Part shown: positions 5,169 to 50,473 of the stretch, piece after piece
How positions within the stretch are numbered: the first letter of the stretch is position 1
How the letters are laid out: every line of letters begins with the position of its first letter
NCBI GenBank assembly: GCA_040390345.1
Contig: JAZJYP010000075.1
Location: forward strand, 1,121 to 65,120
Direction: 5' to 3'
Length of the DNA: 64,000 nt
Source: Pseudomonadota bacterium
GTDB taxonomy: Bacteria; Pseudomonadota; Gammaproteobacteria; Burkholderiales; Burkholderiaceae_D
Position numbers and translations under genes: made by a program
The notes under the pieces: model-generated
Databases searched by the model: none
What the model was told of the DNA's origin: nothing
What the model saw: only the letters and a program-made list of their open reading frames with translations

Positions 5169-5777
5169 ATGAAACGCAGCACCCTGGCCACCGCGGCCAC
5201 CCTCCTCGCCCTGTTCAGCCACCAGGCCCTCGCCGACGACAACTGGCTCGTGCGCGTGCGCGCCGTCAAGCTGTCGCCCGCCGACAAGTCCGACCCCGTC
5301 GGCGGCAGCGGCGCCGCCGACCGCCTGCACGTGTCGAGCAAGACCATTCCCGACATCGACATTTCCTACTTCTGCACGCCGAACGTGGCCGTGGAACTGC
5401 TGCTGACGGTACCGCAAAAGCACACCGTCACCCTGGACGGCACCGGCATCGGCACCTTCAAGCACCTGCCGCCGACCCTGCTGGCCCAGTATCATTTCGC
5501 CCCGGCCTCCCAGCTGAGCCCGTATGTCGGCGCCGGCATCAACTACACACTGATCCACGGTGTCGACCTGCTCGGCGGCAAAGGCGGCCTCGAGCACAGC
5601 AGCGTCGGCCTGGCCCTGCAAGCGGGTCTCGACTACAAGCTCGACAAGAAATGGTCGATCAACATCGACGTCAAGAAGATCCAGATCCGCAGCGACGTCA
5701 CTGCCAGCGGCGCCAAGATCAGCGCCGTCAAGGTCGATCCCCTGCTGGTCGGCGTCGGCGTCGGCTACCGCTTCTAA
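5169..5777 (+). CDS. ompW: OmpW-family outer membrane protein
   Basis: It has a signal peptide, the characteristic start DDNWLVRVRAVKLSPADKSD, and a C-terminal aromatic residue (GVGYRF). Confidence 0.85.
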   Translation: MKRSTLATAATLLALFSHQALADDNWLVRVRAVKLSPADKSDPVGGSGAADRLHVSSKTIPDIDISYFCTPNVAVELLLTVPQKHTVTLDGTGIGTFKHLPPTLLAQYHFAPASQLSPYVGAGINYTLIHGVDLLGGKGGLEHSSVGLALQAGLDYKLDKKWSINIDVKKIQIRSDVTASGAKISAVKVDPLLVGVGVGYRF

Positions 5778-5936: not shown

Positions 5937-7022
5937 TTATTTGCGGGCGGCGCCGATCAGGTAGTTCTGCATCGGCGCTTCGGCCACCGAGGCCCAGGTG
6001 TTCTGGTCCTGGCGGTAGCGCTTCCAGGGCTCATACACCTTCTTGAACTTGGCGTTCTTGGCCGCTTCTTCTTCCATCACTTCATGCGCGGCCTTGTAGC
6101 AGGCGTCCATGATCTCCTTGGAGAAGCTGCGCAGCTTGGTCCCGCCCTTGAGCAGGCGCGCCAGTGCAATCGGATTCTTGTGGTCGTATTCGGCCTGCAT
6201 CACCACGTGGGCTTCGTAGGCGGCCGCCTCGACGGCGTTCTGGTATTCCTTGGGCAGCTTTTCCCATTCCTTGATGTTGATGTAGAGCGAGAGCTGCGGC
6301 CCCGCTTCCCACCAGCCCGGCGCATAGTAGAACGGCGCGACCTTGTGAAAGCCCAGCTTTTCGTCGTCGTACGGACCCACCCATTCGGCGGCGTCGATCG
6401 TACCCTTTTCCAGCGCGGGATAGATGTCGGCGCCGGCCAGTTGCTGCGGCACCAGGCCCAGGCGGTCCATCACACGCCCGGCGAAGCCGCCGATGCGCAT
6501 CTTGACGCCCTTCAGGTCGGCCACGGTGTGGATCTCGCGGCGGAACCAGCCGCCCATCTGGGTACCGGTGTTACCGGCGGCGAAGTTGATGATGCCGTAA
6601 CCCTTGAAGAACTCACGCATCAGCTCGCGCCCGCCGCCCTGGTCGAACCAGGCCGTCTGCTGGCGCGAGGTCAGGCCAAAGGGCACGGCGCAATCGAAGG
6701 CGAAGGTGGGGTCCTTGCCGAAGTAGTAGTAGGACGCGCTGTGGCCGCATTCGACCGTGCCTTCCTTGACCGCATCGAGCACCTGCAGGCCCGGCACGAT
6801 TTCGCCACCGGCGAACACGCGGATGTTGAACTTGCCGCCCGTCAGGCCCGCCACGCGCTTGCTGAACAGTTCAGCCACGCCGTAAATGGTGTCGAGCGAC
6901 TTGGGGAAGCTGCTGGCCAGGCGCCAGTTGATCGTCGGCAGCGACTGGGCCAGCGCCGGGGCGGCGACCGCGCCTGCCGATGCGCCGACCGCCGCTTTTT
7001 TAAGGAAGGAACGCCGTTCCAT
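5937..7022 (-). CDS. TRAP transporter substrate-binding protein (DctP family), Tat signal
   Basis: The N-terminus MERRSFLKKAAVGASAGAVAAPALA is a twin-arginine signal. The body is DctP-like. No dctQ/dctM genes are adjacent. Confidence 0.8.
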   Translation of the reverse strand: MERRSFLKKAAVGASAGAVAAPALAQSLPTINWRLASSFPKSLDTIYGVAELFSKRVAGLTGGKFNIRVFAGGEIVPGLQVLDAVKEGTVECGHSASYYYFGKDPTFAFDCAVPFGLTSRQQTAWFDQGGGRELMREFFKGYGIINFAAGNTGTQMGGWFRREIHTVADLKGVKMRIGGFAGRVMDRLGLVPQQLAGADIYPALEKGTIDAAEWVGPYDDEKLGFHKVAPFYYAPGWWEAGPQLSLYINIKEWEKLPKEYQNAVEAAAYEAHVVMQAEYDHKNPIALARLLKGGTKLRSFSKEIMDACYKAAHEVMEEEAAKNAKFKKVYEPWKRYRQDQNTWASVAEAPMQNYLIGAARK

Positions 7023-36391: not shown

Positions 36392-37933
36392 TTATTGGTA
36401 CAGTGCCGCGAACAGCCCTTTGCAGGAAGCGGACAGTTCGCCCTTGATCACCATCTGCTTGGCCGCCTCGATGTCCGGCGCGAAGAAGCGGTCGGCGTCG
36501 AAGAACGGCACTTGCTGGCGCAGCTGCTGGTGCACATGCTCCAGGTGCGGCGAGGTTTTCAGGGGACGGTGGAAGTCCACGCCCTGGGCCGCTGCCAGCA
36601 ATTCTATGCCAAGGATAACAGCTGTATTGTGCGCCATATCGTCGAGGCGGCGCGCCGCGAAGGTGGCCATCGACACATGGTCTTCCTGGTTGGCCGAAGT
36701 AGGCAGGCTGTCGACACTGGCCGGATGGGCCAGCGACTTGTTTTCCGACGCCAGCGCGGCGGCCGTGACGTGGGCGATCATGAAGCCGGAATTGACGCCA
36801 GGGTCGCGCACCAGGAAAGGCGGCAGGCCGGACAAGGTCGCGTCGATCAGCAGGGCAATGCGGCGCTCGGACAGGCCGCCGATTTCGGCAATCGCCAACG
36901 CCAGCGTATCGGCCGCGAAGGCCACCGGTTCGGCGTGGAAGTTACCGCCGGAGATGATGTCGCCCGTTTCCGGGAAGATGAGCGGATTGTCGGTCACCGC
37001 GTTCGCTTCGATGAGCAGGGTGCGCGCGCTGTTGCGCACGATGTCCATCACCGCGCCCATGACTTGCGGCTGGCAGCGCAGGCTGTAAGGGTCTTGCACG
37101 CGCTCGTCGCCCACCAGGTGGGAGGCGCGGATGGCCGAATCGGCCACCAGCTGGCGGTAGATGGCTGCCGCAGCGATCTGGCCCGGCTGGCCGCGCACGG
37201 CGTGCACGCGCGCGTCGAACGGCGCATCGCTGCCCTTGGCTGCATCCAGCGACAGGGAACCGGCCACCATGCCCGCTTCCAGCAGGCGTTCTGCCATGAA
37301 CAGGCCATGCAGGGCCAGTGCAGTCGACACCTGGGTGCCGTTGATCAGCGCCAGGCCTTCTTTTGCCGCCAGCACCACCGGCGTGATGCCGGCTGCCTGC
37401 AACGCGGCCGTGGCGTCGATCAGCTTGCCGTCCACGCGCACCTGGCCCACGCCCAGCATGGCCAGGGTCATGTGCGACAGCGGCGCCAGGTCGCCCGAGG
37501 CGCCGACCGAACCCTTGGCCGGAATGGCGGGCATGATGCCGGCGTTGTACAGGGCGATCAGCGTATCGATGATCAAGGGGCGCACGCCCGAGAAGCCACG
37601 CGCCAGCGAGCCGATTTTCATCAGCATGACCAGGCGCACGGTGGCGTCGGACATCAGTTCGCCCGTGCCCACCGAGTGCGACAGGATCAGGTTGCGCTGC
37701 AGCTGTTCCAGCTTTTCATCCGGGATGCGCGTCTTGGCCAAGAGGCCAAAGCCGGTATTGATGCCGTAAGCCGCGTCGCCTTTGTTGACGATTGCCTGCA
37801 CGGCGGCGGCGGAGGCTTCGATGACCGGGTAGGCCGAAGCGGCCAGGGTCAGTTTGCCGGGTGCGGCCCACACGGCGCGCAGGTCGGCCAGGGTCATCAG
37901 GCCAGGTTGGAGAGTCCAGTCTTGGTTCGTCAT
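36392..37933 (-). CDS. hutH: histidine ammonia-lyase
   Basis: It has the MIO-forming [14 protein letters not shown] motif and full-length HAL similarity. ATG 37933 gives the usual N-terminus (MT....L.PG.MTLADLR). Confidence 0.93.
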
Positions 37934-37941
37934 GGTGTTCT

Positions 37942-39645
37942 TCACTTGATCATGGGGAGGTTCAAGCCATTGCGCTTGGCGCAGGCGATGGCGGTGTCGT
38001 AGCCGGCGTCGGCATGGCGCATCACGCCGCTGCCGCTGTCGTTGACCAGCACGCGCGCCAGGCGCTTGGCCGCCGCGTCGGTGCCGTCGGCCACAATGAC
38101 GACGCCGGAGTGCTGCGAATAGCCCATGCCCACGCCGCCGCCATGGTGCAGCGACACCCAGGTCGCGCCGCCAGCGGTGTTGAGCATGGCGTTGAGCAGT
38201 GGCCAGTCGGAGACGGCATCGGTGCCGTCTTTCATCGATTCCGTTTCGCGGTTCGGGCTGGCGACGGAGCCGGTGTCGAGGTGGTCGCGGCCGATGACGA
38301 TCGGCGCCTTCAGTTCACCGGTGCGCACCATTTCGTTGAAAGCCAGGCCGGCGATATGGCGCTCGCCCAGGCCCAACCAGCAGATACGCGCCGGCAGGCC
38401 CTGGAAGGCGATGCGCTCGCGCGCCATGTCCAGCCAGCGGTGCACTTGCGCGTGGTGCGGGAACAGTTCCTTGATCTTGGCGTCGGTCTTGTAGATGTCT
38501 TCCGGGTCGCCCGACAAGGCCACCCAGCGGAAGGGGCCGCGGCCTTCGCAGAACTGCGGGCGGATGTAGGCGGGGACGAAGCCAGGGAAGTCGAAGGCGT
38601 TTTTCACGCCGTGGTCCAGCGCGACCTGGCGGATGTTATTGCCATAGTCGACGGCCTTGATGCCCATCGCGTGGAAGTCCAGGATGGCTTGCACGTGCAC
38701 GGCGCAAGAGGCGGCCGCCGCTTCCTTCAGTGCCACGTGCTGCGTTTCGTCGGCCTGCGCGGCCTTCCATTGCGCGACCGTCCAGCCGCTGGGCAGGTAG
38801 CCGTTGATCAGGTCATGGGCCGAGGTCTGGTCGGTGACGAGGTCCGGTTTCAGGCTGCCGGCCTTGGCGCGCTTGACCAGTTCCGGCAGCACGTCGGCGG
38901 CGTTGCCCAGCAGGGCGATCGACACGGCTTCGCGGCGCTCGGTGTGATGCTTGATGAGGGCCAACGCATCGTCGATGTCCTTGGCTTGCTTGTCTACGTA
39001 CTTGGTGCGCAGGCGGAAGTCGATGCTGCTTTGCTGGCACTCGATATTGAGCGACACGGCACCGGCGAAGGTGGCGGCCAGCGGCTGCGCGCCGCCCATG
39101 CCGCCCAGTCCCGCCGTGAGGATCCAGCGCCCGCCCCAATCGCCGCCGAAGTGCTGGCGCCCGGCTTCGGCGAAGGTTTCGTAGGTGCCCTGGACGATGC
39201 CCTGGGTGCCGATATAGATCCAGCTGCCGGCAGTCATCTGGCCGTACATGAAGAGGCCCTTGCGGTCCAGTTCATTGAAGTGTTCCCAGTTGGCCCACTT
39301 GGGCACCAGGTTGGAGTTGGCCAGCAGCACGCGCGGCGCGTTCTCGTGGGTCTGGAACACGCCGACCGGCTTGCCCGACTGGATCAGCAGGGTTTGGTCG
39401 TCTTCCAGCGTGCGCAGGGTGGCCAGGATCTGGTCATAGCATTCCCAGTTGCGCGCGGCGCGGCCGATGCCGCCGTAGACGACCAGGTGTTTCGGGTTTT
39501 CCGCCACTTCCACGTCCAGGTTGTTCTGGATCATGCGGTAAGCCGCCTCCGTCAGCCAGTTCTTGCAGTTGAGCGTGGTGCCGCGCGGCGCGCGGATGTC
39601 GCGCGTCGCGTCGAAGCGCGGATCGTTGTCGAGTTTGGTCGTCAT
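37942..39645 (-). CDS. hutU: urocanate hydratase
   Basis: 567 aa, unmistakable urocanase ([28 protein letters not shown]). Confidence 0.95.
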
Positions 39646-39835: not shown

Positions 39836-40237
39836 ATGGCACTATCATTCCAGCCCAAAGTACGTGCAGTCGTGATGTGTGACTTTGCGGGAAATATCGA
39901 GCCTGAGATGGTAAAAAGGCGCCCTGTCGTCGTGATTGCTCGGAATCGCACCAACAGCAAGTTGGTAACGATCGTCCCCTTAAGTACGACCGAGCCAAAT
40001 GTGATGGCGAAACACCACTACGAGCTCCCAATTAACCCAGTGCCGGCACAGAAGGGGCGGAAATGCTGGGCAAAATGCGATATGGTTGCGACTGTCTCGC
40101 TTGAGCGCATGGACCGGTTGAAGGACGGCTGGAATCGCGTGGTGCCAGAGGTCACCGCCACCGATCTGAATGCGATCAGGCTAGGCGTGGTCAACGCACT
40201 TCAATTGAAAGGCACCGTCGAAGAAGGGCGATCCTGA
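39836..40237 (+). CDS. solitary PemK/MazF-superfamily toxin-like protein
   Basis: FQPKVRAVVMCDFAGNIEPEMVKRRPVVVIA...LVTIVPLST follows the MazF/PemK N-terminal SH3-like barrel pattern. The surrounding DNA is visibly AT-richer than its neighbours. Confidence 0.65.
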   Translation: MALSFQPKVRAVVMCDFAGNIEPEMVKRRPVVVIARNRTNSKLVTIVPLSTTEPNVMAKHHYELPINPVPAQKGRKCWAKCDMVATVSLERMDRLKDGWNRVVPEVTATDLNAIRLGVVNALQLKGTVEEGRS

Positions 40238-40401: not shown

Positions 40402-42060
40402 TTAGCGGCGCGTGAACACCTGCTTGCCGGCCACCCAAGTCTGCTGCACGGCCACCTTGTAAATATCATAGGTCGGCATGGTGAAAAGGTCATGGTCGAT
40501 GACGATAAAGTCGGCCCATTTGCCCACTTCCAGCGAACCAGTCACCTTTTCCTGGTGGCCCGCGTAGGCCGCGTCGAGCGTGAAGCAGCGGAACGCTTCC
40601 TTGAGCGACATGGCCTGGTCGGGATGCCAGCCGGCGATGGGCTGGCCGGCCGCATCCTGGCGGGTGACGGCGGCGTGGATGCCGAAGAAAGGATTGGGCG
40701 ACTCGACCGGGAAGTCCGACCCGCAGGCGATGCGCGAACCTTGATGCAGGAAGCTGCGCCACGCGTATGCGCCCTTCATGCGCTCGGCACCGATGCGCGT
40801 TTCAGCCATGTTCTTGTCCGAGGTAGCGTGGGTCGGCTGCATCGACGGGATGATGCCGATGCTCTTGAAGCGCGGGATGTCCGACGGCGCCACGACCTGG
40901 ACGTGCTCGACGCGGTGGCGCAGGCCGACGGTGCCGGTTTTTTTGACCAGCTTGTCGAAGGCGTCGAGGATCTGGTGGTTGCCGGCATCGCCAATGGCGT
41001 GCACGTTGACCTGGTAGCCGCGCTTCATGGCTTTTTCCATCATCGCCGTGATGGCGGCGTTGGAGTTGAACAGCAGGCCGTGGCTTTTCGGCTCGTCGCT
41101 GTAGGGCGCCAGCAGGGCCGCGCCGCGGCTGCCCAGGGCGCCGTCCGAATACAGCTTCACGGCGCGCAGCGCATACATGTCGTTGGCGTAGGTGGGCAGT
41201 GGACCGTTCTTGGACAGCTTGTCGAAGTCGGCATCGGTCCCGCCGATCATGCCGTAGATGCGGGCGGTCAGCTTGCCGTGGTCCGCATAGTCGCGATACA
41301 GATAGTCCTCGCTTGCGTTCACGCCAGCGTCGTGCGCCGAAGTCAGGCCCAGGCTGGCCATGGTGGCGAGCGAGGCGTCGAGCAAGGCGCGCCCTTCGGC
41401 TTCGGTTTTCTTCGGCAGGACTTTTTCAACCAGCTCCTTGGCCGCATCGACGAGCACGCCGGTGGCGTTGCCACTGGCGTCGCGCAGGATCTTGCCGCCG
41501 GCCGGATCGGGCGTGCTCTTGGTGATGCCGGCCAGCGCCAGCGCTTTCGAATTGGCCCAGCCGGCATGGCCGTCCACGCGCGAGAGCCACACCGGGCGGT
41601 CCGCGACGACGCCATCTAGTTCGACGGCGGTGGGGAAACGTCCCAGTTTCCAGATCTCCTGGTTCCAGCCGCGGCCGATCAGCCAGGCTTGCTGCGCGTG
41701 GCTGCGCGAATAGTCACCGACCGCCTTGAGCGCGCCGGCCAGACTGGACGTGCCCACCAGGTCCAGCTCCGACAGCAGCGCGCCAAGCCCGAAGACATGG
41801 CCATGCGCATCGATCAATCCCGGCAGCACCGTCTTGCCCTGCATGTCCACATGCTTCGCGCCCGGCGCTTTGGCCGCCACGTCGGCTGCGCTGCCCACCG
41901 CGATGATCTTGCCCGCATCGTCAAAGGCGAGCGACGAGAACTGGACCATCGCATTGTACGCGTTCAGCGTGTAGCCGTTGGCGTTGTCGATCACGGTGGC
42001 GGCGTGGGCGCCGAAGCAGGTCAATACAAGCGCCGACAGCGCCGAACGGGTAAAACGCAT
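40402..42060 (-). CDS. secreted amidohydrolase family 3 (YtcJ-like) protein
   Basis: 552 aa with a signal peptide. The segments LPGLIDAHGHV, VNVHAIGD and GSDFPVE are present. Confidence 0.85.
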   Translation of the reverse strand: MRFTRSALSALVLTCFGAHAATVIDNANGYTLNAYNAMVQFSSLAFDDAGKIIAVGSAADVAAKAPGAKHVDMQGKTVLPGLIDAHGHVFGLGALLSELDLVGTSSLAGALKAVGDYSRSHAQQAWLIGRGWNQEIWKLGRFPTAVELDGVVADRPVWLSRVDGHAGWANSKALALAGITKSTPDPAGGKILRDASGNATGVLVDAAKELVEKVLPKKTEAEGRALLDASLATMASLGLTSAHDAGVNASEDYLYRDYADHGKLTARIYGMIGGTDADFDKLSKNGPLPTYANDMYALRAVKLYSDGALGSRGAALLAPYSDEPKSHGLLFNSNAAITAMMEKAMKRGYQVNVHAIGDAGNHQILDAFDKLVKKTGTVGLRHRVEHVQVVAPSDIPRFKSIGIIPSMQPTHATSDKNMAETRIGAERMKGAYAWRSFLHQGSRIACGSDFPVESPNPFFGIHAAVTRQDAAGQPIAGWHPDQAMSLKEAFRCFTLDAAYAGHQEKVTGSLEVGKWADFIVIDHDLFTMPTYDIYKVAVQQTWVAGKQVFTRR

Positions 42061-42168
42061 CAGGGACTCCTTCTTGAATTCAAAAGCAAGAAAGAGAGTG
42101 TATAGATATTTCGAAATTGTTCAATCTGCTAACATCGGCCGTCTATACCTTACCCGAGAGAGCTGCCT

Positions 42169-42762
42169 GTGACCGTGATCCGCCCGCTGCAACCTGATGA
42201 CGCTGCAGCCTACCGTGCCCTGCGCCTGTTCAGCATTGAAGAATCGCCGACCTCGGTCTGGGCCTCGCATGATGAAGAAAGCGCGCTGTCCCAGTCCGCC
42301 TTCGCGCAACGGCTGACACCAACACCCCATCAAATCGTGATGGGAGCCTTTCATGGCGACAAACTGCTTGGCATCGCCGGCATGCGGCGCGAGAACGTGC
42401 GCAAGATCGCCCATCGCGCCGGCTTGTGGGGCATCTACGTTATGCCCGAAGCGCGCGGCGCTGGCCTCGCGCGCCAGATGGTGAATGCACTGATCGCCCA
42501 CGCGCGCGCGCAGGCGGACCTCGTCCAGTTGACGCTGTGCGTGCGCAGTTCCAACGAATCGGCCAAGCAGCTTTACACCAGCATGGGTTTCATCAGGACG
42601 GGCGTTGACCCGCGCTCGATGCTGATCGACGGTGATTTCCATGACGAAGACCGGATGGTCCTGCGTCTCGATCAGCAGGACAGTACGCATGTGGCGCTAG
42701 TGAACGCACAAGCCTTTCCCCCTACATATCAGGAGCCGCCATGCCCTTCGATGAAGGATTAG
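42169..42762 (+). CDS. GNAT N-acetyltransferase with atypical C-terminal extension
   Basis: GTG start. It has the acetyl-CoA motif EARGAGLARQMV. After the usual GNAT end (DRMVLRL) there are about 30 extra residues running into the next gene. Confidence 0.7.
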   Translation: MTVIRPLQPDDAAAYRALRLFSIEESPTSVWASHDEESALSQSAFAQRLTPTPHQIVMGAFHGDKLLGIAGMRRENVRKIAHRAGLWGIYVMPEARGAGLARQMVNALIAHARAQADLVQLTLCVRSSNESAKQLYTSMGFIRTGVDPRSMLIDGDFHDEDRMVLRLDQQDSTHVALVNAQAFPPTYQEPPCPSMKD

Positions 42763-43070
42763 CTGAGAGAATTCGGGAAGTCCTCGCTACCGATCGCCAT
42801 GTTATGGAAAAGAGAATGTTCGGCGGACTGGCCTTCATGTCCGGAGGCTATATGTTTATCGGCATAGCGGGCCCCGCCCTGATGGTAAGAGTCGGCCCCG
42901 AGAACTATGAGAAAGCCCTTTCACAGCCCCATGTGCGAGAAATGGATTTCACCGGAAAACCAATGAAGGGCTATGTCTTTGTGGATCCACCGGGTTTTGA
43001 AGATGCCGCGGATCTTTCCAATTGGGTTGATCTGTGCCATCGTTTTGTCAAAACTTTGCCGCCAAAGTAA
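42741..43070 (+). CDS. TfoX N-terminal domain protein
   Basis: 109 aa. EKRMFGGLAFMSGGYMFIGI....LMVRV is the TfoX_N pattern. Lower G+C starts about here. Confidence 0.75.
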   Translation: MPFDEGLAERIREVLATDRHVMEKRMFGGLAFMSGGYMFIGIAGPALMVRVGPENYEKALSQPHVREMDFTGKPMKGYVFVDPPGFEDAADLSNWVDLCHRFVKTLPPK

Positions 43071-43381
43071 GCCCAATGAATGCGTCAGGTCCGTCTCCTG
43101 ACCCAACATGAACGCTCTCCGCGCGCTCAACACACGACGACGTTGGAATCGAAGAGCTCGCGTCCATAACGAGGTTGACGATTTTCCGTTCTGCCTACTG
43201 CAGAGCGAACGAGTGAAACGCGGCAAGGTGTGTTTGCAGTTTAGTTTTAGGGTGCGCTAAACTGAGCTAAGTATCTAAGAATAAAAGAGAAAACTCGCGA
43301 GGCCGTACTCGGAAACGGTTCCTTGTCGGTTTATTTTGCGCCCATTGGGGCGTCTACTTAACGTTGGTCTGTTACTTCACG

Positions 43382-43684
43382 ATGAAACTACTGGAAGCAA
43401 TTTTCCTCGTTACTCAAATGCCGGACGACTCGTGCATTTGCTGCGTTCGTCCGTTTCATCAAAGCAGCGACGCGAAAATCGTGCAGCTAACTGCCGAGTG
43501 CTCTTTACCGGAGCATGCGCTTGAAAATGGTTTCGAGTACTTTCTAGAAAAGGATGGAATAGAAGAGCTTCCTGGCTACGCGGAAGGCAAGCTCAAGTCT
43601 CGTGAAGCGAAGACCGAATTCATCGTTTACTATGCCGAGTTCGATGCATACCCCGCGTGGTTCAACGAATTGTGTGCAGAGTAG
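43382..43684 (+). CDS. hypothetical cassette protein (immunity-protein-like small acidic protein)
   Basis: 100 aa from ATG 43382, which lies 13 nt after the core GTTGGTC. I cannot name a confident family. Confidence 0.45.
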   Translation: MKLLEAIFLVTQMPDDSCICCVRPFHQSSDAKIVQLTAECSLPEHALENGFEYFLEKDGIEELPGYAEGKLKSREAKTEFIVYYAEFDAYPAWFNELCAE

Positions 43685-43702
43685 AAATGGCAAACGCTAA
43701 CT

Positions 43703-43760
43703 GCCCAACCCATTGTTCCAGCGGATCGCCTTCGGCGCCCGCTGAACATGCACGTTGGCC
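43703..43760 (+). other. attC-like site (58 bp)
   Basis: GCCCAAC / CCATTG / TTCCAGCGG / ATCGCC-TTC-GGCGC / CCGCTGAA / CATGCAC / GTTGGCC. The inner stem has one unpaired base. Confidence 0.55.
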
Positions 43761-43995
43761 GCGCTTTGGTCACGTGTGTTGGCGTGGTGGCTACGCTCAG
43801 CACCTGAGCCACAGGCGGCATGAAGAGCGCGGCTCCGCTTGGCGTTTGGGCCGGTGGCAAAGTGGCCGCAAGGTTTCGTTTTAAGTTTCGTCCACGGCTG
43901 CATCGTTGGCAGTGGCAAGCGCAGGCGTTGGTGCCGTTGGTTGCGTCGCGGTCGGTGGCTTCGGTGGCGCGGTCCGCAGCAAGTTCATGTGCCCC

Positions 43996-44085
43996 GGCCA
44001 ACCCCGCGCTCGTTCGGACCGGCCGGACTCGCCACTTCTTAGTTTTAATCCGCTGGCGGCCGTCCGCACAGCTTTAACGTTAGCC
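43996..44085 (+). other. possible long attC-like site (90 bp)
   Basis: GGCCAAC ... CGGACCGGCCG ... CGGCCGTCCG ... CTTTAAC-GTTAGCC. The boxes pair only partially. Confidence 0.3.
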
Positions 44086-44102
44086 GCCTCTAGCACGCCT
44101 AT

Positions 44103-44504
44103 ATGTCGTATCCAGTTCTCGATATCTCCAGATTTGACGACATCCTCCCGTACCTACGCGGCAAGGTCTTCCATGTCACGCCTACGGCCAGCTTGGCCGT
44201 GATCCTGGCAGATGGTTTCCTGCTTCCGAATGTTGGCGATCGAGTCTCTCTTTTTGGAAATACGACCACTGGCTATTTTCGACACAAAGGCTGCGTCTCT
44301 TTCTTCGACTACCGGCGCCCCGATTCAGAAGAATGGAAGGAACACGCACACAAGTGTTTGCCAACGCTCCCGCTCACAAGGACACAGCAGATCGCTATCC
44401 TTTTCTTGGCCGAGAAGGAGCATCAAAAATTGATCTCATGGGAAGGTTGGAAACGCGAGCAACTTTGGTCCTATAGGGTCGTTCCGCACGTCGAGTGCGG
44501 TTAG
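44103..44504 (+). CDS. hypothetical cassette protein
   Basis: 133-aa ORF starting 18 nt after the GTTAGCC core. The N-terminal KVFHVTPTASLAVILADGFLLPN faintly recalls ART-fold/DarT-like openings (speculative). Confidence 0.45.
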   Translation: MSYPVLDISRFDDILPYLRGKVFHVTPTASLAVILADGFLLPNVGDRVSLFGNTTTGYFRHKGCVSFFDYRRPDSEEWKEHAHKCLPTLPLTRTQQIAILFLAEKEHQKLISWEGWKREQLWSYRVVPHVECG

Positions 44505-44646
44505 CCGCGGTGTTCGCGTCACGACAGAAGGCGGCGGTGCTCGTGAAACTACGCTCGGTTGTAAGGCGCCGGTCATCTCTAATCTCCAACAACTGGAAGG
44601 CAAAGTGCCATGCGATCCCGAGAGTGCGCTTGCTCAGTGCAACTAA

Positions 44647-44703
44647 GCCTAACCATCAGCTTAACTGGACGCGCTGGCGCGCGCAGTTAGCGACACGCTA
44701 GGC
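44647..44703 (+). other. attC-like site, degenerate core (57 bp)
   Basis: GCCTAAC / CATCA / GCTTAACTG / GACGCGC-TGG-CGCGCGC / AGTTAGC / GACAC / GCTAGGC. It belongs to the same family as 44991-45050, but the core GTT is mutated to GCT. Confidence 0.5.
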
Positions 44704-44708
44704 TTTCG

Positions 44709-44996
44709 ATGTCACGACTGGGCAAAGTCTCAATTGATCTAGGTGCGGCTACCGACGCAGATATGCTTCACCATTTACTCATGGAAGCCTTGAAATTCCC
44801 GGGGTGGTACGGTTGCAACTGGGATGCCTTTTGGGATGCTATTACTGGGCTCGTTGAGATGCCGGAAGTGCTCGAATTTACGAACTGGCAAGGTTTTGCG
44901 GCGCGTTTGCCGAATGAAAGTCACCTTATGAGGACTTGCCTTGAAGAAATGGCACAGGAATTTCCAGCATCGGCGTCGAAGGTTTTCTATGCCTAA
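44709..44996 (+). CDS. barstar-family ribonuclease inhibitor (orphan immunity protein)
   Basis: DMLHHLLMEALKFPGWYGCNWDAFWDAITGLVEMPEVLEF aligns by eye with barstar [38 protein letters not shown]. Confidence 0.8.
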   Translation: MSRLGKVSIDLGAATDADMLHHLLMEALKFPGWYGCNWDAFWDAITGLVEMPEVLEFTNWQGFAARLPNESHLMRTCLEEMAQEFPASASKVFYA

Positions 44997-45050
44997 CCAT
45001 TTAATCAACCCGGACGCGCTGAAGCGCGCCGGTTATTCGTCACGTTGGGT
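44991..45050 (+). other. attC-like site (60 bp), best preserved
   Basis: GCCTAAC / CATTT / AATCAACCCGG / ACGCGC-TGAA-GCGCG / CCGGTTATT / CGTCAC / GTTGGGT. The barstar TAA stop lies inside the inverse core, and two bases of the inner stem are unpaired. Confidence 0.7.
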
Positions 45051-45083
45051 ATCAAAATTCATTTTTACTGGGACCTCTACTTG

Positions 45084-45422
45084 ATGCAACTTCTTTTTTC
45101 GTATGGAACACTCCAGCAGCGTGAAGTTCAACTGGCCACTTTCGGCCGTGAGCTACTGGGGATCGCTGACCAACTTATAGGTTTTCATCAATCGATGGTC
45201 AAGATTGAAGACCCCGAAGTCGTTAAGACGAGCGGGAAAACGCATCATCCGATAGTCAAACGAACGGGCAAAGTCGATGATCGTGTTGCCGGAACAGCGT
45301 TCGAGGTAACAGATGAGGAATTAGTGAATGCGGACAAATATGAAGTGTCTGACTATAAGCGTGTTTCGGCTTCGCTGGCCTCTGGTCGCACAGCGTGGGT
45401 TTACGTAGACGCTCGTACATAA
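45084..45422 (+). CDS. gamma-glutamylcyclotransferase (AIG2/GGACT-like) family protein
   Basis: The N-terminal LFSYGTLQ motif and the size (112 aa) fit. The ATG lies 34 nt after the attC core. Confidence 0.75.
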   Translation: MQLLFSYGTLQQREVQLATFGRELLGIADQLIGFHQSMVKIEDPEVVKTSGKTHHPIVKRTGKVDDRVAGTAFEVTDEELVNADKYEVSDYKRVSASLASGRTAWVYVDART

Positions 45423-45510
45423 TGTGCAGTGCCGCCCTATCCTGCAGTCAACTGGACTGTCTCCACGCCGCGCGCTCCGGCAGCCAGGTACTTTGAATGT
45501 CAGGCCCCGC

Positions 45511-45942
45511 ATGAAGAATTCGGCAATCTATGCTCCGCTGCTACTTCGGCTGACGCTCGGGGCCTTGTTCATCGCCCATCTTTACTGGAAGTTCGCTGTC
45601 TTTCCAGGCGGCGTGGATCAATGGCGCTCAAACTTTGCGGCCAATGGATACCCATGGTTCGTGCCGTGGTATGTTCTCTCGGCTGAATTCGCCGGTGCGC
45701 TCTTGCTCATTCCCGGCGTCTACGTTCGCTGGGTGAGTTTATATGCGCTTCCAATGATGATCGGCGCCGCTCATTTTTGGGCAGTGCGCAAAGGGTTTTG
45801 GTTTGTTGCCTCTGGCGCAGAGCTTCCCGTCGTATGGTCTGTCCTGCTGGTGCTTCAGGCTATGCTCGGCGATGGCCCGTGCGCTTTAAAGGTGTGGCCT
45901 AACAATTCATTTAAGGTGAAGTCACCTTGCGGCTCGGATTAG
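45511..45942 (+). CDS. DoxX-family membrane protein
   Basis: It has 4 TM segments and LLRLTLGALFIAH...EFAGALLLIPG, the DoxX pattern. The C-terminal 20 residues read through the attC-like left half, so the 3' end may be frameshifted. Confidence 0.7.
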   Translation: MKNSAIYAPLLLRLTLGALFIAHLYWKFAVFPGGVDQWRSNFAANGYPWFVPWYVLSAEFAGALLLIPGVYVRWVSLYALPMMIGAAHFWAVRKGFWFVASGAELPVVWSVLLVLQAMLGDGPCALKVWPNNSFKVKSPCGSD

Positions 45943-45943
45943 C
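45897..45943 (+). other. attC remnant (left half plus degenerate right end)
   Basis: GCCTAAC-AATTC-ATTTAAGGTGA-AG-TCACCTT ... GATTAGC. The left half resembles aadA-type attC (GTCTAACAATTCGTTCAAG) from memory. There is no intact GTT core. Confidence 0.35.
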
Positions 45944-46003
45944 TCCGCTCGTGAAGGATAATTCGGCCCAGCGCTCACCATTACATGGGAAGGTACTTCG
46001 TAT

Positions 46004-46306
46004 ATGACCCCTCTACAAATTGCGTTGCTGTGTGGCCTTGTCTTCGGCACCTTTGCCGTCGTGCTGATGTTGCCGATGGCATTTCCTGACAAGCGAACCG
46101 CCCTTTTGTGTGCCTTTGCCAGCCGTTTCGCGATTGGCTTCCTCATTCCGCTTATCAGCTTGCCTGTTCACGTTGCAGTAAAAGGGGCTGTCGTCGGTTT
46201 TCTCATTAGCCTTCCAGACGCCTTGCTCACAAAGGCGTACGCTCCGATACTTGGCATCGGTGTTGTCGGTGGCGCGGTCATTGGGATGGCGGCAAATACG
46301 TTCTAA
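46004..46306 (+). CDS. small membrane protein (3 TM), unknown
   Basis: 100-aa hydrophobic ORF on the same strand as the cassettes. Confidence 0.45.
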   Translation: MTPLQIALLCGLVFGTFAVVLMLPMAFPDKRTALLCAFASRFAIGFLIPLISLPVHVAVKGAVVGFLISLPDALLTKAYAPILGIGVVGGAVIGMAANTF

Positions 46307-46366
46307 CTGTTCGGCTCCGGCGGACGCACTTCAGCTTTGATATGTCGATATTTTCAGGGGTTTGTT

Positions 46367-46885
46367 TTGACGAGAATTTTGGAAACGGAACGTCTTATCG
46401 TTCGACAGATGCGCGTGGAGGATGCTGCCTTCATGCTCGAACTTTTGAATGGCGCGGCGTGGTTGCGCCATATTGGCGATCGGGGCGTCAAGACGCTGGA
46501 CGACGCGCAGGGCTATATCCGGAACGGGCCGCTGCAGATGTATGCGCGCCTGGGATTCGGTTCCTACGTCGTCGAATCGAAGGACACCGGGGCGGCCATC
46601 GGCACCTGCGGCTTGCTCAAGCGCGACTTCCTCGACGACGTCGATATTGGTTACGCCCTGCTGCCGCAGCATTGTGGCAGGGGCTATGCCAGCGAGGCCG
46701 CCAGTGCCTTGCTGTGCTATGCAAGGGACGTCGTGGGCAAGTCGCGCGTTCTGGCGACTGTGCGCGCGGCCAATGTGGATTCGGTCAGGGTCCTCGAAAA
46801 GCTGGGCCTGCGCTTCGAGCGGGCGATGATGCATCCGGATGGCGACCGGGAAATTCAGGTTTATGCCATCGACTTTACGCAATAG
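46367..46885 (+). CDS. GNAT N-acetyltransferase (RimJ/RimL-like)
   Basis: It opens with the typical ILETERLIVRQM and has the motif QHCGRGYASEAASALL. I propose a TTG start at 46367, preceded by AGGGG. Confidence 0.7.
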   Translation: MTRILETERLIVRQMRVEDAAFMLELLNGAAWLRHIGDRGVKTLDDAQGYIRNGPLQMYARLGFGSYVVESKDTGAAIGTCGLLKRDFLDDVDIGYALLPQHCGRGYASEAASALLCYARDVVGKSRVLATVRAANVDSVRVLEKLGLRFERAMMHPDGDREIQVYAIDFTQ

Positions 46886-46923
46886 CGAATCACAGCTGAT
46901 GTAACAACAGCAAGGAGGGCAGC

Positions 46924-47400
46924 ATGACAGTCAAGCGCATGGATAACGTTGGCATCGTGGTGGAAGACCTTGATGCCGCCATTGCGTTCTTTACCGAACT
47001 TGGCCTCGACCTTGAGGGGCGCGCCCCCGTTGAAGGCAATTGGGCCGATGGCGTCACCGGCTTGCGCGGCATGCGCGTCGAAATTGCCATGATGCGCACG
47101 CCGGACGGTCACAGCCGCCTGGAGTTGTCGCGCTTTCTCGCGCCGGCCATGGTCGCCGATCATCGCGCCGCGCCAGTCAATGCGCTTGGCTACCTGCGCG
47201 TCATGTTCACCGTGGAGGATATCGACGATACCCTCGCGCGGCTCGGCAAATGCGGGGCCACGCTCGTTGGCGACGTGGTCCAGTATGAAAACATGTATCG
47301 ACTCTGCTATATCCGAGGGCCTGAAGGCATTCTCATCGGGCTGGCCCAGGAGCTCGGTCAGCCGACTTCCCGGGCGAACCCCATCGCACCAGATCGTTGA
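46924..47400 (+). CDS. VOC/glyoxalase-family protein
   Basis: It shows MDNVGIVVEDLDAAIAFF..LG and a second beta-alpha-beta-beta-beta module (LRVMFTVEDIDDTLARL). Confidence 0.8.
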   Translation: MTVKRMDNVGIVVEDLDAAIAFFTELGLDLEGRAPVEGNWADGVTGLRGMRVEIAMMRTPDGHSRLELSRFLAPAMVADHRAAPVNALGYLRVMFTVEDIDDTLARLGKCGATLVGDVVQYENMYRLCYIRGPEGILIGLAQELGQPTSRANPIAPDR

Positions 47401-47409
47401 CGCTACGCG

Positions 47410-47718
47410 ATGAGGAAAGTTGTCGCCGCCGTGGCAATGGCGATGACGCGGTCAACTTTACCGCCACTTGTACCGAACAGAAAAAATAAACATCAAATGC
47501 GTCCAGCCTTGAAACAAAAAATAATCGATGTGTGCGAGAGCAAGCTCAGGATAAAAGGTCCAGACGTCGGTTTGTCTTTTTACGCTTTTTTCTGCAACAA
47601 GAACGAGGACCCGGCACTCTTGATGGAAGCGGCCACCTGGTGGATCCAAACGCATCAATTGGATCATTTTGAGAAGGCATCCAAGATCAAGCGCCTGGCC
47701 CTGCAAGAAACTCCGTAG
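47410..47718 (+). CDS. hypothetical protein (weak)
   Basis: The ORF lies in AT-richer DNA. The first about 30 codons look non-coding, so the real start may be the internal ATG (MRPALKQK). Confidence 0.3.
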   Translation: MRKVVAAVAMAMTRSTLPPLVPNRKNKHQMRPALKQKIIDVCESKLRIKGPDVGLSFYAFFCNKNEDPALLMEAATWWIQTHQLDHFEKASKIKRLALQETP

Positions 47719-47858
47719 GCAAGTGTTCGATGGCGAAGTGGGGGTATGCCAGCGCGAAGGGCGCCTGCGCGAGGGTGAAGGCAGTTGCCAAGATAAACAA
47801 GCAGGCGTTCGCTGCCCAGGTGCATTGCCCCGCTCCGGCGGCTATGGTTGAGGCCGTG

Positions 47859-47887
47859 TCCAAATGTCAGATGTGACCCCGACGTTT
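47859..47887. repeat. half copy of the GTCAGATGTGACCCCGACGT element
   Basis: A 20-nt identity with the right arm of the 61741-61842 hairpin. It sits exactly between the accessory stretch and the stop of the 2OG oxygenase gene. Confidence 0.7.
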
Positions 47888-48561
47888 TAGGCGGCGTCGT
47901 GGAAGATGAGACCGAGGGTGTGGCGGGTTCCGCTGCGCAGGCGGCTTACACCGTGGCGCATGTTGACGCGGTAGCTGCCGCGCGTGCCGTTCACGGGACG
48001 ATGATGCACGGGGAAAATCACGGCGTCGCCTTGCGCCAGCGGCACCACTTCGGCGCGCGACTGCATGCGCAGACGCTGTTCGGTGAGGACGAATTCGCCA
48101 CCCGTGAAGTCGCGCGAGAGCAGCACCGCCACTTGCAGCGGGAAGACGTGCTCACCATACAGGTCCTGGTGCAGGCAGTTGTAGTCGCCGGGGGCGTATT
48201 GCAGCAGCAGCGGCGTGGGGCGGGTCTGGCCCGCCTCGTGGCAGCGGGCGAGGAAGTCGGCATGCACTTCGGGATAGTGCGTGTCGATGCCCATGGCGGC
48301 GTTCCAGCGGTTGGCGATGTGTGCCAACGGTTCGTAAAGTTTCGTGCGCAGGCGCTGCAGGTGGTCGGGCAGCGGGTAGGCAAAATACTGGTATTCGCCG
48401 CGGCCGAAGCCGTGCCGCTCCATCACCACGCGCGAACGGAACAGGCTCGCTTCCGCATAGCTGGCGGCATAGGCGGCGCATTGCTGCGCCGTGAGCAGGG
48501 CGGGGACCACGGCGCAGCCATGGGCGTCGAGCTGCGCGCCCACTTCTTCCCAATCGATCAT
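47887..48561 (-). CDS. 2OG-Fe(II) oxygenase (COG3826/DUF2086-like), Ada-linked
   Basis: 224 aa with an HxD...H facial triad candidate (CLHQDLYGE ... MRHGVS). Its start overlaps the ada stop as ATGA. Confidence 0.7.
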   Translation of the reverse strand: MIDWEEVGAQLDAHGCAVVPALLTAQQCAAYAASYAEASLFRSRVVMERHGFGRGEYQYFAYPLPDHLQRLRTKLYEPLAHIANRWNAAMGIDTHYPEVHADFLARCHEAGQTRPTPLLLQYAPGDYNCLHQDLYGEHVFPLQVAVLLSRDFTGGEFVLTEQRLRMQSRAEVVPLAQGDAVIFPVHHRPVNGTRGSYRVNMRHGVSRLRSGTRHTLGLIFHDAA

Positions 48562-49622
48562 TTGCTGCCTTCGCGTTCGAGCAGGGCTTGCTTGCGCTCG
48601 ACGCCCCAGCGGTAGCCGGAGATCGCGCCGTCGTTGCGCACCACGCGGTGGCAGGGGATGGCGACGGCGGCGGGGTTGGCGGCGCAGGCACCGGCCACGG
48701 CGCGCGCGCCCGAGGGAAGGTCGATGCGGGCGGCCAGTTCGGCGTAGCTGACCGTTTCGCCGGGGGGGATGGCGCGCAGCGCTTGCCACACGCGCTGCTG
48801 GAAAGCGGTGCCGCGCACGTCGAGCGGCAAGTCGAGGCCAATCTCGGGCGCTTCCACCAGGCCCACCACCTTGGCCACGGTGGATTCGAAATCGGCTTCG
48901 GCGCCGCGCAGTTCGGCCTTGGGGAAGCGGTCTTGCAGGTCGCGCGCGAGCAGTTCGGGGTCGTCGCCCATCAGGATGGCGCAGATGCCTTTGCCGGTTG
49001 CGGCAACCAGGATGGCGCCGAGCGAACTTTGGCCGATGGCGAAGCGAATGGTCTCGCCGCTGCCGCCCTCGCGGAAGCTCTTGGGACGCATGCCCAGCAC
49101 GGCGTCGGCCTTGGCGTAGAAGCGGCCGCTGGAATTGAAGCCGGCGTTGTAGATCGCTTCGGTCACGCTGCCGGCAGCGGCCAGGCCAGCCTGCACACGG
49201 GCGGCGCGCTGGGCGGCGGCGTAGGCCTTGGGGGTGATGCCGGTGTGGCGCTTGAACAGGCGGTGGAAGTGGAAAGGCGACAGGCCGCAGGCGGCGGCCA
49301 GGCTGTCGAGGTCGGGCGCTTCCTCGGCCGCCTCGATCAGGCGGCAGGCGCGGGCGATGAGGGCGGCGTGGCGCTCGGCCAGCGGCGGCAGGTTGGGCTT
49401 GCAGCGCAGGCAGGGACGAAAGCCCGCAGCTTCGGCATCGGCGCAGCTGGCGTGGAAGGCAATGTTCTTGCGCAGGGCCGGGCGCGCGCCGCACGAGGGG
49501 CGGCAATACACGCCGGTGCTGCGCACGGAGTAGTAGAAGGCGCCATCGGCGTCGGGGTCGCGCCGCTGCACAGCGGCCCAGCGGTCTTCGTCGGTCTGGT
49601 AGTGGTTCATTTCGGCTTTCAT
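48558..49622 (-). CDS. ada: bifunctional Ada: methylphosphotriester methyltransferase/AraC-type regulator plus O6-methylguanine-DNA methyltransferase
   Basis: The N-terminus has the Zn-Cys4 region (FYYSVRSTGVYCRPSCGARP...FRPCLRCKP). The middle is an AraC HTH. The C-terminus has the PCHRV active site. Confidence 0.9.
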   Translation of the reverse strand: MKAEMNHYQTDEDRWAAVQRRDPDADGAFYYSVRSTGVYCRPSCGARPALRKNIAFHASCADAEAAGFRPCLRCKPNLPPLAERHAALIARACRLIEAAEEAPDLDSLAAACGLSPFHFHRLFKRHTGITPKAYAAAQRAARVQAGLAAAGSVTEAIYNAGFNSSGRFYAKADAVLGMRPKSFREGGSGETIRFAIGQSSLGAILVAATGKGICAILMGDDPELLARDLQDRFPKAELRGAEADFESTVAKVVGLVEAPEIGLDLPLDVRGTAFQQRVWQALRAIPPGETVSYAELAARIDLPSGARAVAGACAANPAAVAIPCHRVVRNDGAISGYRWGVERKQALLEREGSK

Positions 49623-49753
49623 GGCGTTTTCCCTTCGCTTGACAATGCCTGCATCGTAAAGCGCCGAAAACGGCAAAACACCCCGGGTCTTGCTATTGAA
49701 TTCAAGTGCTATAGAATCGGAGCTTTAGGACGCCCCCCAACCCGGAGAGTAGT

Positions 49754-50473
49754 TTGGAAGAAGCCACCGCGCAAGAGAACACGCCGATTTTCCAGCGCAT
49801 CAAAGATTACCTGATGAGCGAAATCGGCGCTGGCCGCTGGAAGGAAGGCGATGTCATCCCTTCCGAGCAGGCCCTGGTCAAGCAGTTCGGTGTCTCGCGC
49901 ATGACCGTCAACCGGGCGGTGCGCGAACTGACGGCCGAGCAAGTGCTCACGCGCCGCCAGGGCTCGGGCACCTTTGTCGCGCCGCAAAAGTTCCAGGCCA
50001 CGCTGGTCGAAATCAAGAGCATCGCCGACGAAATCCGCGCGCGCGGCCACGAACATCGCAGCCACCTGCACCTGCTCGAACGGGGGCGCGCCTCGGAGGC
50101 GATGGCCGCAGCTTTCGAGCTGGCGCCGGGGGCGGAGCTGTACCACTCCGTTATCGTCCATTTTGAGAACGAGCTGCCCATCCAGGTCGAGGACCGCTGG
50201 GTCAACCCGGCCTGCGCGCCGGATTATATGGGGCTCGACTTTTCCACGACCACGCCGAACGCCTATTTGATGGATGCGGCGCCGCTGTCGGGCGCGACCT
50301 ACAGCATCGAAGCCTTGACTCCCACGCGCGAAATCGCCGACATGCTGGCCATCGAGGCGCGCCAATGCTGCCTGGTCCTGAAACGCAAGACGTGCTCCCA
50401 GGGCCGCACGGCCTCGCTGGCGACGATGTGGCATCCGGGCCACCGCTACCAGTTCGCTGGCAGCGTGGCGTGA
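49754..50473 (+). CDS. hutC: histidine utilisation repressor (GntR/HutC family)
   Basis: TTG start. It has the GntR HTH (LPSEQALVKQFGVSRMTVNRAVRELT) and a UTRA effector domain. Confidence 0.8.
   Translation: MEEATAQENTPIFQRIKDYLMSEIGAGRWKEGDVIPSEQALVKQFGVSRMTVNRAVRELTAEQVLTRRQGSGTFVAPQKFQATLVEIKSIADEIRARGHEHRSHLHLLERGRASEAMAAAFELAPGAELYHSVIVHFENELPIQVEDRWVNPACAPDYMGLDFSTTTPNAYLMDAAPLSGATYSIEALTPTREIADMLAIEARQCCLVLKRKTCSQGRTASLATMWHPGHRYQFAGSVA

Follow-up and report, generated by a model that had tools for sequence, protein, structure and literature searches.

In an integron, recombination by the integrase IntI between attI and an attC site, the latter as a folded bottom strand, inserts a cassette at the attI end of the array, and recombination between two attC sites excises one. 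It has been observed that clusters of attC sites that have no integron integrase (CALINs) outnumber complete integrons, with 279 of the former and 164 of the latter in 2,484 genomes (PMC4889954). In the same survey 83% of CALINs held fewer than six attC sites, a recognisable intI pseudogene was found near just 15 of the 279, leaving 95% with none, and approximately 10% of beta-proteobacterial genomes carried integrons (PMC4889954). Because attI sites are unknown for most integrons, annotation of the start of an array is limited (PMC4889954). An integron of Xanthomonas is described as having lost its activity and kept its cassettes (bioRxiv 10.1101/2025.06.18.660453).

The array described here lies in a 64-kb stretch of DNA (contig JAZJYP010000075.1; hereafter the window) with a GC content of 64%, whose closest relatives are Massilia and Telluria in the family Oxalobacteraceae. 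A first reading of this DNA, made from the sequence alone, had proposed that a run of short open reading frames (ORFs) represents either a decayed chromosomal integron or a CALIN serviced in trans, and this proposal was supported by both the attC model and the comparison with related genomes reported below. The favoured reading is that the locus, a CALIN, represents a degenerate integron from which intI has been lost, and we give this a probability of roughly 0.78.

Four attC sites are present within 1.35 kb (43703–45050), as in a CALIN, for which at least two attC sites within 4 kb are expected. Their lengths fall in the known range of about 57–141 nt, and each lies downstream of a + strand ORF, except attC2, which closes a unit with no apparent ORF.

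43703–43760, + strand: attC1, 58 nt; R'' GCCCAAC, R' GTTGGCC; a single C bulging from the 5' arm
43996–44085, + strand: attC2, 90 nt; R'' GGCCAAC, R' GTTAGCC; long variable loop
44647–44703, + strand: attC3, 57 nt; R'' GCCTAAC, R' GCTAGGC; a bulged T
44991–45050, + strand: attC4, 60 nt, canonical; GCCTAAC...GTTGGGT; two bulged C in the 5' arm

An Rfam scan of 41.5–49 kb returned noise only, Rfam containing no attC family. A covariance model (R1) was built from three of the window sites, labelled A (attC1, 43703–43760), B (attC3, 44647–44703) and C (attC4, 44991–45050), with a hand-written structure; it served as a stepping stone only, and on the window it found its own three seed sites and nothing else. 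When a metagenome collection was searched with a DNA pattern limited to the loop and 5' half of sites B and C, namely GCCTAACN{11,17}GACGCGCTGNNGCGCG, at least 120 contigs, mostly from soil, matched. The 3' arms of these matches, which the pattern leaves unspecified, complement the 5' arm with a bulge and complete the attC hairpin, and 68 of 81 matches end in GTTR at the correct distance. R1 identified 112 sites on 80 of these contigs, many of them in same-strand arrays with a spacing of 250–600 bp (7 attC sites in contig L109 and approximately 15 in L111, for example). Full-length IntI genes adjoin the arrays in L094, L111, L132 (the same locus as L185), L148, L184 and L194; a partial IntI gene lies beside the array of L114, L178 has a partial match, and short fragments are present in L127 and L173. 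The IntI proteins that were compared directly are 50–56% identical to IntI1, the IntI1 query itself having been checked as 100% identical to the annotated protein.

The orientation of intI differs among these contigs. In L111 (51–1130), L132 (374–1429; also L185) and L148 (3172–2156), intI and the cassettes share a strand, the array lies downstream of intI, and the encoded protein is approximately 53% identical to IntI1. The usual divergent layout was found in L094, L114, L184 and L194.

A second covariance model (R2) was built from the 112 metagenomic sites and zero window sequences. In the positive control three annotated class 1 integrons were searched and R2 recovered every one of their attC sites (12/12, 17.7–46.7 bits), each directly after its cassette gene and on the cassette strand, and in the negative control the best match in 1.6 Mb of related Oxalobacteraceae DNA scored 23.1 bits. 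When applied to the window with filters off, R2 returned four matches at E<0.01, all on the + strand. The three sites for which the sequence-only reading had claimed attC architecture scored 67.1 bits (attC4, E 2e-13), 52.6 bits (attC3, E 6e-10) and 39.1 bits (attC1, E 1e-6), all above the background maximum, and the site sequences that it had quoted were exact, including the GCT in attC3 and the TAA stop codon of the barstar gene (44994–44996) inside the R'' of attC4, GCCTAAC. The fourth and weakest match, attC2, scored 25.0 bits (E 0.002 on the window, 0.0002 on a 6-kb region); a core at 44079 that had been taken for an isolated one is in fact the R' of this 90-nt site. A sequence-only hidden Markov model (nhmmer) gave E 5e-14 for attC4 and just E 0.025 for attC1, so the attC1 signal is carried by structure.

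At the level of the crossover motifs, attC4 is the sole strict RYYYAAC...GTTRRRY pair (47–157 nt long) in the 64 kb. Both attC1 and attC2 keep the AAC and GTT triplets and a 7-bp R box, and are one position off RRR. The attC3 site keeps AAC and has the conserved GTT changed to GCT, so that it falls short of the core pattern by itself and is probably dead as a crossover site. Among the four, only attC3 and attC4 resemble each other.

The extrahelical bases expected of attC sites were found in the three listed sites. A 7-bp outer R box, a bulged inner stem and a GC-rich terminal stem-loop are common to attC1, attC3 and attC4, and their bulged bases are confined to the 5' arm of the + strand, which is the strand of the ORFs. 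Bulges on that arm correspond to the canonical cassette polarity and mark the recombinogenic bottom strand. When folded as single-stranded DNA, attC1 and attC3 form the full hairpin, and the A/T-rich inner stem of attC4 makes its folding less complete. In attC1 the fold is more stable than in shuffled sequences, with z-scores of −3.2 (bottom strand) and −3.8 (top strand). In the alignment of the wider family, 95.6% of cells are paired and 13 pairs show compensatory changes, values that none of 500 shuffles reached, although the covariation, which is strong in the inner stem, comes from an alignment fitted to the model.

The hairpins could in principle be REP-like (repetitive extragenic palindromic) intergenic repeats or terminators in an ordinary genomic island, with core motifs arising by chance. 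Their position downstream of ORFs is terminator-like, and the fold energies of attC3 and attC4 are only modestly better than those of shuffles (z −1.2 to −2.1). However, no T-run terminator was found at the attC sites, and the family to which these sites belong, in sequence and structure alike, occurs in arrays beside IntI genes. The model of that family finds all 12 of the class 1 attC sites tested and nothing comparable in 1.6 Mb of the relatives, and four of the ORFs (c100, c133, GGACT and VOC, below) have attC-flanked cassette homologues. We therefore regard this explanation as close to refuted.

Three further candidate sites were rejected. A left-half copy at 45897, claimed in the sequence-only reading, was not significant (R2 6.0 bits, E 6.7 in the 6-kb search; nhmmer E 27). 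A possible half site at about 46299 was supported by neither the covariance model nor nhmmer, and a 48-nt ACCCAAC...GTTGGAA unit downstream of the TfoX_N gene (43100–43147) reached 6 bits and was discarded as evidence.

The G/TT boundaries (the slash marks the crossover point) of the four sites divide the proximal part of the array into cassettes of 391, 325, 618 and 347 bp, and further genes follow on the same strand.

43364–43754, + strand: cassette 1; ORF c100 (100 aa) at 43382–43684, no Pfam family
43755–44079, + strand: cassette 2, GC 0.64; body at 43761–43995, with bounds from attC1 and attC2
44080–44697, + strand: cassette 3; ORF c133 (133 aa) at 44103–44504, no Pfam family
44698–45044, + strand: cassette 4; Barstar ORF (95 aa) at 44709–44996, PF01337, E 1.6e-18
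45084–45422, + strand: GGACT/AIG2-like gene (Pfam), former cassette
about 45432–45506, + strand: fossil attC5; GCCTAAC changed to GCCCTAT and GTTA.. to GTCAGGC, loop with a 14-nt insertion
45511–45942, + strand: DoxX family membrane protein gene, PF07681
45897–45945, + strand: possible attC relic, GCCTAACAATTCATTTAA...GATTAGC, with sequence resemblance to attC and a weak fold
46004–46306, + strand: membrane ORF (100 aa; Pfam search)
46367–46885, + strand: GNAT acetyltransferase gene (GNAT2; Pfam)
46924–47400, + strand: VOC/glyoxalase gene (Pfam), former cassette, attC gone
47497–47718, + strand: DUF6500 gene (73 aa; Pfam), with the start codon as in P0138

The run of + strand ORFs that had first drawn attention is real; Pfam assigned three of its members to Barstar, GGACT and DoxX and left the 100-aa and 133-aa ORFs without a family. 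Cassette 2 is apparently ORF-less; the ORFs at 43820–44077 (+) and 43630–44001 (−) had no Pfam match. A homologue of c100 with 31% identity lies on contig L183 (489–761) between attC sites at 428–484 and 759–815. For c133, a homologue with 40% identity on L168 (168–569) lies between attC sites at 47–139 and 678–755. All homologues of c133 are longer (155–184 aa), continuing with YPGPVEL... after ...VVPHVECG, and a TAG stop in the window cuts approximately 25 aa relative to every one of them.

The c133 family is rare, with 17 proteins (P0002–P0017 among them) in a search of 5.8 billion proteins, and shows the conserved motifs GCVSFFDYR and VVPHVECGYPG. Its members were found as an integron cassette (L168), singly in a housekeeping-gene context (L082) and beside AbiEii and Hcp genes (L083). 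Two homologues, P0004 and P0006, were set aside as integron evidence, being lone genes without attC and so uninformative.

Two genes beyond attC4 also have cassette homologues. The GGACT protein is 90% identical to a protein (P0019) whose gene has attC sites on either side, and differing neighbours, in the six contigs L208–L213. Nucleotide homology to L208 and L210 begins at the R' core of attC4 and runs through the gene into fossil attC5. This fossil site is recognisable only through alignment to the intact attC sites of the L208 and L210 cassettes; it was undetected by R2 and gave no stable fold. Other homologues of GGACT and c133 are lone genes without attC. The VOC gene shows 87% protein and 84% DNA identity to positions 5644–6093 of L111, where its twin lies between attC sites at 5549–5629 and 6162–6231 in an integron with an IntI gene at 51–1130; the homology starts at the ribosome-binding site, right after the R' core.

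The arrays that hold P0019 (L208, 3916–7001; L209; L210) lie beside cysS and a transpeptidase gene and include DUF4160/DUF2442 pairs among their cassettes. The cassettes neighbouring P0019 differ from contig to contig.

The sequence-only reading had suggested that the small genes up to 47.9 kb may be older cassettes. This held for the VOC gene, with its attC-flanked homologue, and did not hold for DUF6500, for which there was no evidence of a cassette origin, its homologues in L215–L217 having no attC nearby. R2 found no attC site at 46004–46885, the interval of the membrane ORF and GNAT2.

In the window the order of the distal genes is GNAT–VOC–DUF6500 (46367–47718). In three unrelated contigs a DUF6500 gene directly follows a GNAT gene (L215, 2580–3291; L216, 2355–3228; L217, 265–1138), with no attC nearby, which hints that these families are functionally connected.

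At the head of the array, a TTAAC-GTTGGTC core at 43363 had been taken as a simple boundary between units. It has no attC partner, and the surrounding sequence instead carries a motif found at the starts of metagenomic arrays.

42169–42762, + strand: GNAT acetyltransferase gene (GNAT1; Pfam)
42741–43070, + strand: TfoX_N protein gene (Pfam)
43336–43369, + strand: putative attI-type junction and array start, core TCTACTTAACG/TTGG at 43353–43367

The motif YCTACTTNNNGTTRG (YCTACTTNNNG/TTRG) was derived from the intI-proximal junctions of L094 and L114 together with the window, and the crossover is presumed to fall between G43363 and T43364. The window contains a single copy (expected number 0), and the 1.6 Mb of related genomes contain none. 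Of the loci retrieved, only attC-bearing metagenome contigs had it (L094, L114, L132/L185, L173, L184 and L112). Its position is between intI and the first attC, on the strand of the cassettes, in L094, L114, L132/L185 and L184, beside an intI fragment in L173 and upstream of an attC in L112. The similarity of the window junction to L184 and L094 spans approximately 34 nt. With moderate confidence, this pattern suggests that 43336–43369 is an attI-type junction.

The junction most similar to that of the window is in L112, where an attI-type core (985–999, −) accompanies an attC site (573–632, −) and no IntI match was found in the 1.8 kb upstream. L112 may be another platform from which intI has been lost.

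The junction bears on whether an integron platform ever existed here, since the cassettes could have been inserted by a visiting integrase into a secondary chromosomal site of attG type with a bare GTT. Insertion of cassettes by IntI outside att sites has been demonstrated (bioRxiv 10.1101/2022.09.11.507474), creation at secondary sites is one listed origin of CALINs (PMC4889954), and no intI pseudogene is detectable in the window. The left junction nevertheless exceeds a bare GTT, matching the junctions between intI and the first cassette of several metagenomic integrons over 15–34 nt, and attC-less genes flank the array on both sides, which is unexplained by single-cassette insertion. This origin is consequently considered improbable, and a platform that has lost its integrase gene is preferred.

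No tyrosine recombinase was found in the 64-kb window, in agreement with the sequence-only reading. In tblastn, none of seven queries (IntI1, XerC and five metagenomic recombinases) had a match at E<0.1, and a profile search of the six-frame ORFs had a best E of 0.48; the search reached 43 kb upstream and 19 kb downstream of the array. Within 43040–43370, the best tblastn alignment to any of the seven recombinases was short, gapped, stop-containing and not collinear, and was rejected as an intI remnant. Likewise, a recurrent 8-aa tblastn match at 45917–45894 (−) to the HSFATHLL region of IntI was neither significant nor collinear, and was discarded.

The array shows several signs of decay, as had been proposed from the GCT core of attC3. 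In addition to that mutation, c133 is truncated, attC5 is eroded at both conserved triplets, and the attC of the VOC gene has been lost. The proximal attC sites are mostly intact and the distal ones are eroded. This gradient fits insertion at attI with age rising along the array.

These observations bear on a live CALIN serviced in trans, in which an intI elsewhere in the genome would still excise and reshuffle the cassettes and the array would be an active reservoir. The intact AAC and GTT triplets of attC1, attC2 and attC4, with scores like those of functional class 1 sites, would allow this, as would the restriction of the integrase search to 64 kb of the genome; half of CALINs are reported to share a replicon with IntI, and CALIN cassettes to be mobilisable in trans (PMC4889954; bioRxiv 10.1101/2025.06.18.660453). 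Speaking against turnover are the GCT of attC3, the stop codon in c133 and the eroded attC after GGACT, together with the absence of any attC after VOC, though its 87%-identical twin keeps one. Continued service in trans is thus judged unlikely, if less so than insertion at a secondary site, and the array is probably inactive at present.

Under the preferred reading of a degenerate integron, the locus would consist of an attI-type junction followed by c100, the ORF-less unit, the truncated c133 and barstar, each ending in a hairpin attC. Beyond barstar would lie older cassettes with attC sites that are eroded (GGACT with fossil attC5) or gone (VOC), and the whole 5.8-kb block would occupy a variable spot of the hut locus in a Massilia-like bacterium. 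Because insertion occurs at attI, the newest cassettes would be nearest to it and the oldest farthest away. With no intI in cis, the array would be frozen unless IntI acts in trans. Judging by their core triplets, attC1, attC2 and attC4 could still be substrates, and attC3 and fossil attC5 probably no longer are; the distal genes may be turning into ordinary chromosomal genes.

Several points weigh against this reading or limit it. The intI search covered 64 kb, and an intI may lie elsewhere in the genome. No convincing fragment of an intI pseudogene was found in 43040–43370 by tblastn with the seven recombinases, so we infer the loss of intI and do not demonstrate it. The place expected for intI is occupied by GNAT1 and TfoX_N, which overlap by 22 bp, lie on the cassette strand and are absent from the related loci, two genes that this reading does not account for. 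A crude scan found 0 matches to the sigma-70 consensus promoter in 42000–48000, as compared to a mean of 3.0 in shuffles, which is weak evidence because of the crudeness of the scan. For attC2, the score exceeds the best background match by just 2 bits, and the bottom strand of the site folds with the 7-bp R box at an energy no better than that of shuffles (z −0.06); its strand and position are as expected for an attC. The window and two loci were used to define the attI-type motif post hoc, which leaves L132/L185, L173, L184 and L112 as the only independent matches, and for this reason confidence in the junction is only moderate. R2 was used as a stand-in for the attC covariance model of IntegronFinder, and the scores of attC3 and attC4 are partly circular because R2 descends from a model seeded with window sites. 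The class 1 control and the linkage to IntI make the attC assignment safe, and the concern over circularity is reduced by them, not removed.

The array forms part of an insert that is specific to this lineage. It is bounded by the amidohydrolase gene of the hut locus on one side and by the Oxygenase-NA, ada and hutC-like genes on the other.

36392–37945, − strand: hutH (Pfam)
37942–39645, − strand: hutU (Pfam)
39836–40237, + strand: PemK/MazF-type toxin gene (Pfam)
40402–42060, − strand: amidohydrolase gene (Pfam)
42061–47886, + strand: 5.8-kb insert specific to this lineage, with the amidohydrolase gene to its left and the Oxygenase-NA/ada/hutC genes (47887 onward) to its right
47887–48561, − strand: Oxygenase-NA family gene (Pfam)
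48558–49676, − strand: ada (Pfam)
49754–50473, + strand: GntR/UTRA regulator gene, hutC-like (Pfam)

The insert holds 11 small ORFs (42169–47718), every one on the + strand. Its GC content is 0.50–0.61, and 0.48–0.56 at 42.8–46.4 kb, compared with 0.64–0.67 in the flanks, which bears out the AT-richness noted by eye in the sequence-only reading. The homologous loci (L002–L081) of 80 species of Massilia, Janthinobacterium and Duganella were compared. All 80 share the order hutC–ada–(oxygenase)–amidohydrolase–hutU–hutH, none carries any of the insert ORFs between the conserved flanking genes, and R2 found no attC site at the homologous locus in any of them. The ORFs are thus not conserved core genome, and conservation of that kind would have refuted the cassette array. 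The gap between the oxygenase or ada gene and the amidohydrolase gene ranges from approximately 100 bp to approximately 6 kb in these genera, and on account of this range it is taken to be a variable spot or insertion hotspot. The proteins of the window were otherwise seen only on a 3.3-kb Logan contig and one contig of a metagenome-assembled genome at NCBI, and the amidohydrolase is at most 76% identical to any protein of 185,579 species representatives.

The PemK/MazF-type gene lies in an AT-richer patch of its own (GC 0.52–0.56) between hutU and the amidohydrolase gene. None of the 80 related loci contains it, and there is no obvious antitoxin ORF alongside. It looks like a second, separate strain-specific insertion into the hut locus.

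A broader proposal can be formulated from these data. It is that the locus shows every stage from cassette to chromosomal gene, namely intact cassettes at attI, a mutated crossover triplet, a fossil attC and attC-less former cassette genes, and that its head junction, together with the IntI-linked contigs, defines a conserved attI core (YCTACTT-N3-G/TTRG) for a soil clade of IntI, of which no prior attI description was found. Taken jointly, we give the two parts of this proposal an even chance of being correct.

Within the papers available for full-text search, nothing relevant linked Massilia with integrons and attC sites. The novelty claimed in the sequence-only reading, that integrons are little described in such a lineage, was nevertheless overstated, considering the numbers of CALINs and the share of beta-proteobacterial genomes with integrons cited above (PMC4889954). 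The understanding of integrons is unchanged by this locus, CALINs being already known to outnumber complete integrons. What it adds is one well-documented integrase-less array in a Massilia-like soil bacterium, in which cassettes known from soil metagenomes (VOC at 87% and GGACT at 90% identity) are fixed in a chromosome, along with a short natural succession of attC erosion stages. A by-product of somewhat wider use is the candidate attI core for a soil integron clade.

With respect to the described classes, no intI adjoins the array in the window, as it does in a complete integron. Nor does the locus resemble a sedentary chromosomal integron, as its position is not conserved among the 80 Oxalobacteraceae species and its four sites are not homogeneous. 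It is most like the CALINs of Cury et al. 2016 (PMC4889954), sharing a small attC cluster with neither an intI nor an intI pseudogene nearby and cassettes of unknown or non-resistance function. It differs from them in apparently retaining an attI-type junction at its head and in showing an explicit series of attC erosion. Because that junction appears to be kept, the locus gives the impression of a complete platform lacking intI, not of a detached array fragment.

The ilvD-linked integron of Xanthomonas (bioRxiv 10.1101/2025.06.18.660453) is likewise chromosomal, with non-resistance cargo, a lost integrase function and cassettes that have been kept. There, however, the locus is conserved across the genus and intI is usually recognisable, whereas here the insert is absent from 80 relatives and intI is missing. 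With the class 1 mobile integrons (intI1-attI1-cassettes-qacEdelta1/sul1) the locus shares attC architecture and cassette polarity, attC4 aligning position by position with the attC sites of aadA1 and aadA2 under one model. Unlike them, it has no intI, resistance cassette, 3' conserved segment or Tn402/Tn21 context, and its attI-type core differs from attI1.

The integrons of the soil metagenomes (the GCCTAAC...GGACGCGCTGAAGCGCGCC... subfamily; L094, L111, L114, L132, L184 and L194) carry IntI, full-length except in L114, where it is partial, and longer arrays, whereas the window is without IntI. The locus shares with them the attC subfamily (attC3 and attC4), the attI-type core and related cassettes, including VOC at 87% identity and the c100 and c133 homologues. 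Relative to the known systems, its extras are modest: a junction of attI type, a series in which erosion can be seen, and a connection to an attC subfamily widespread in soil.

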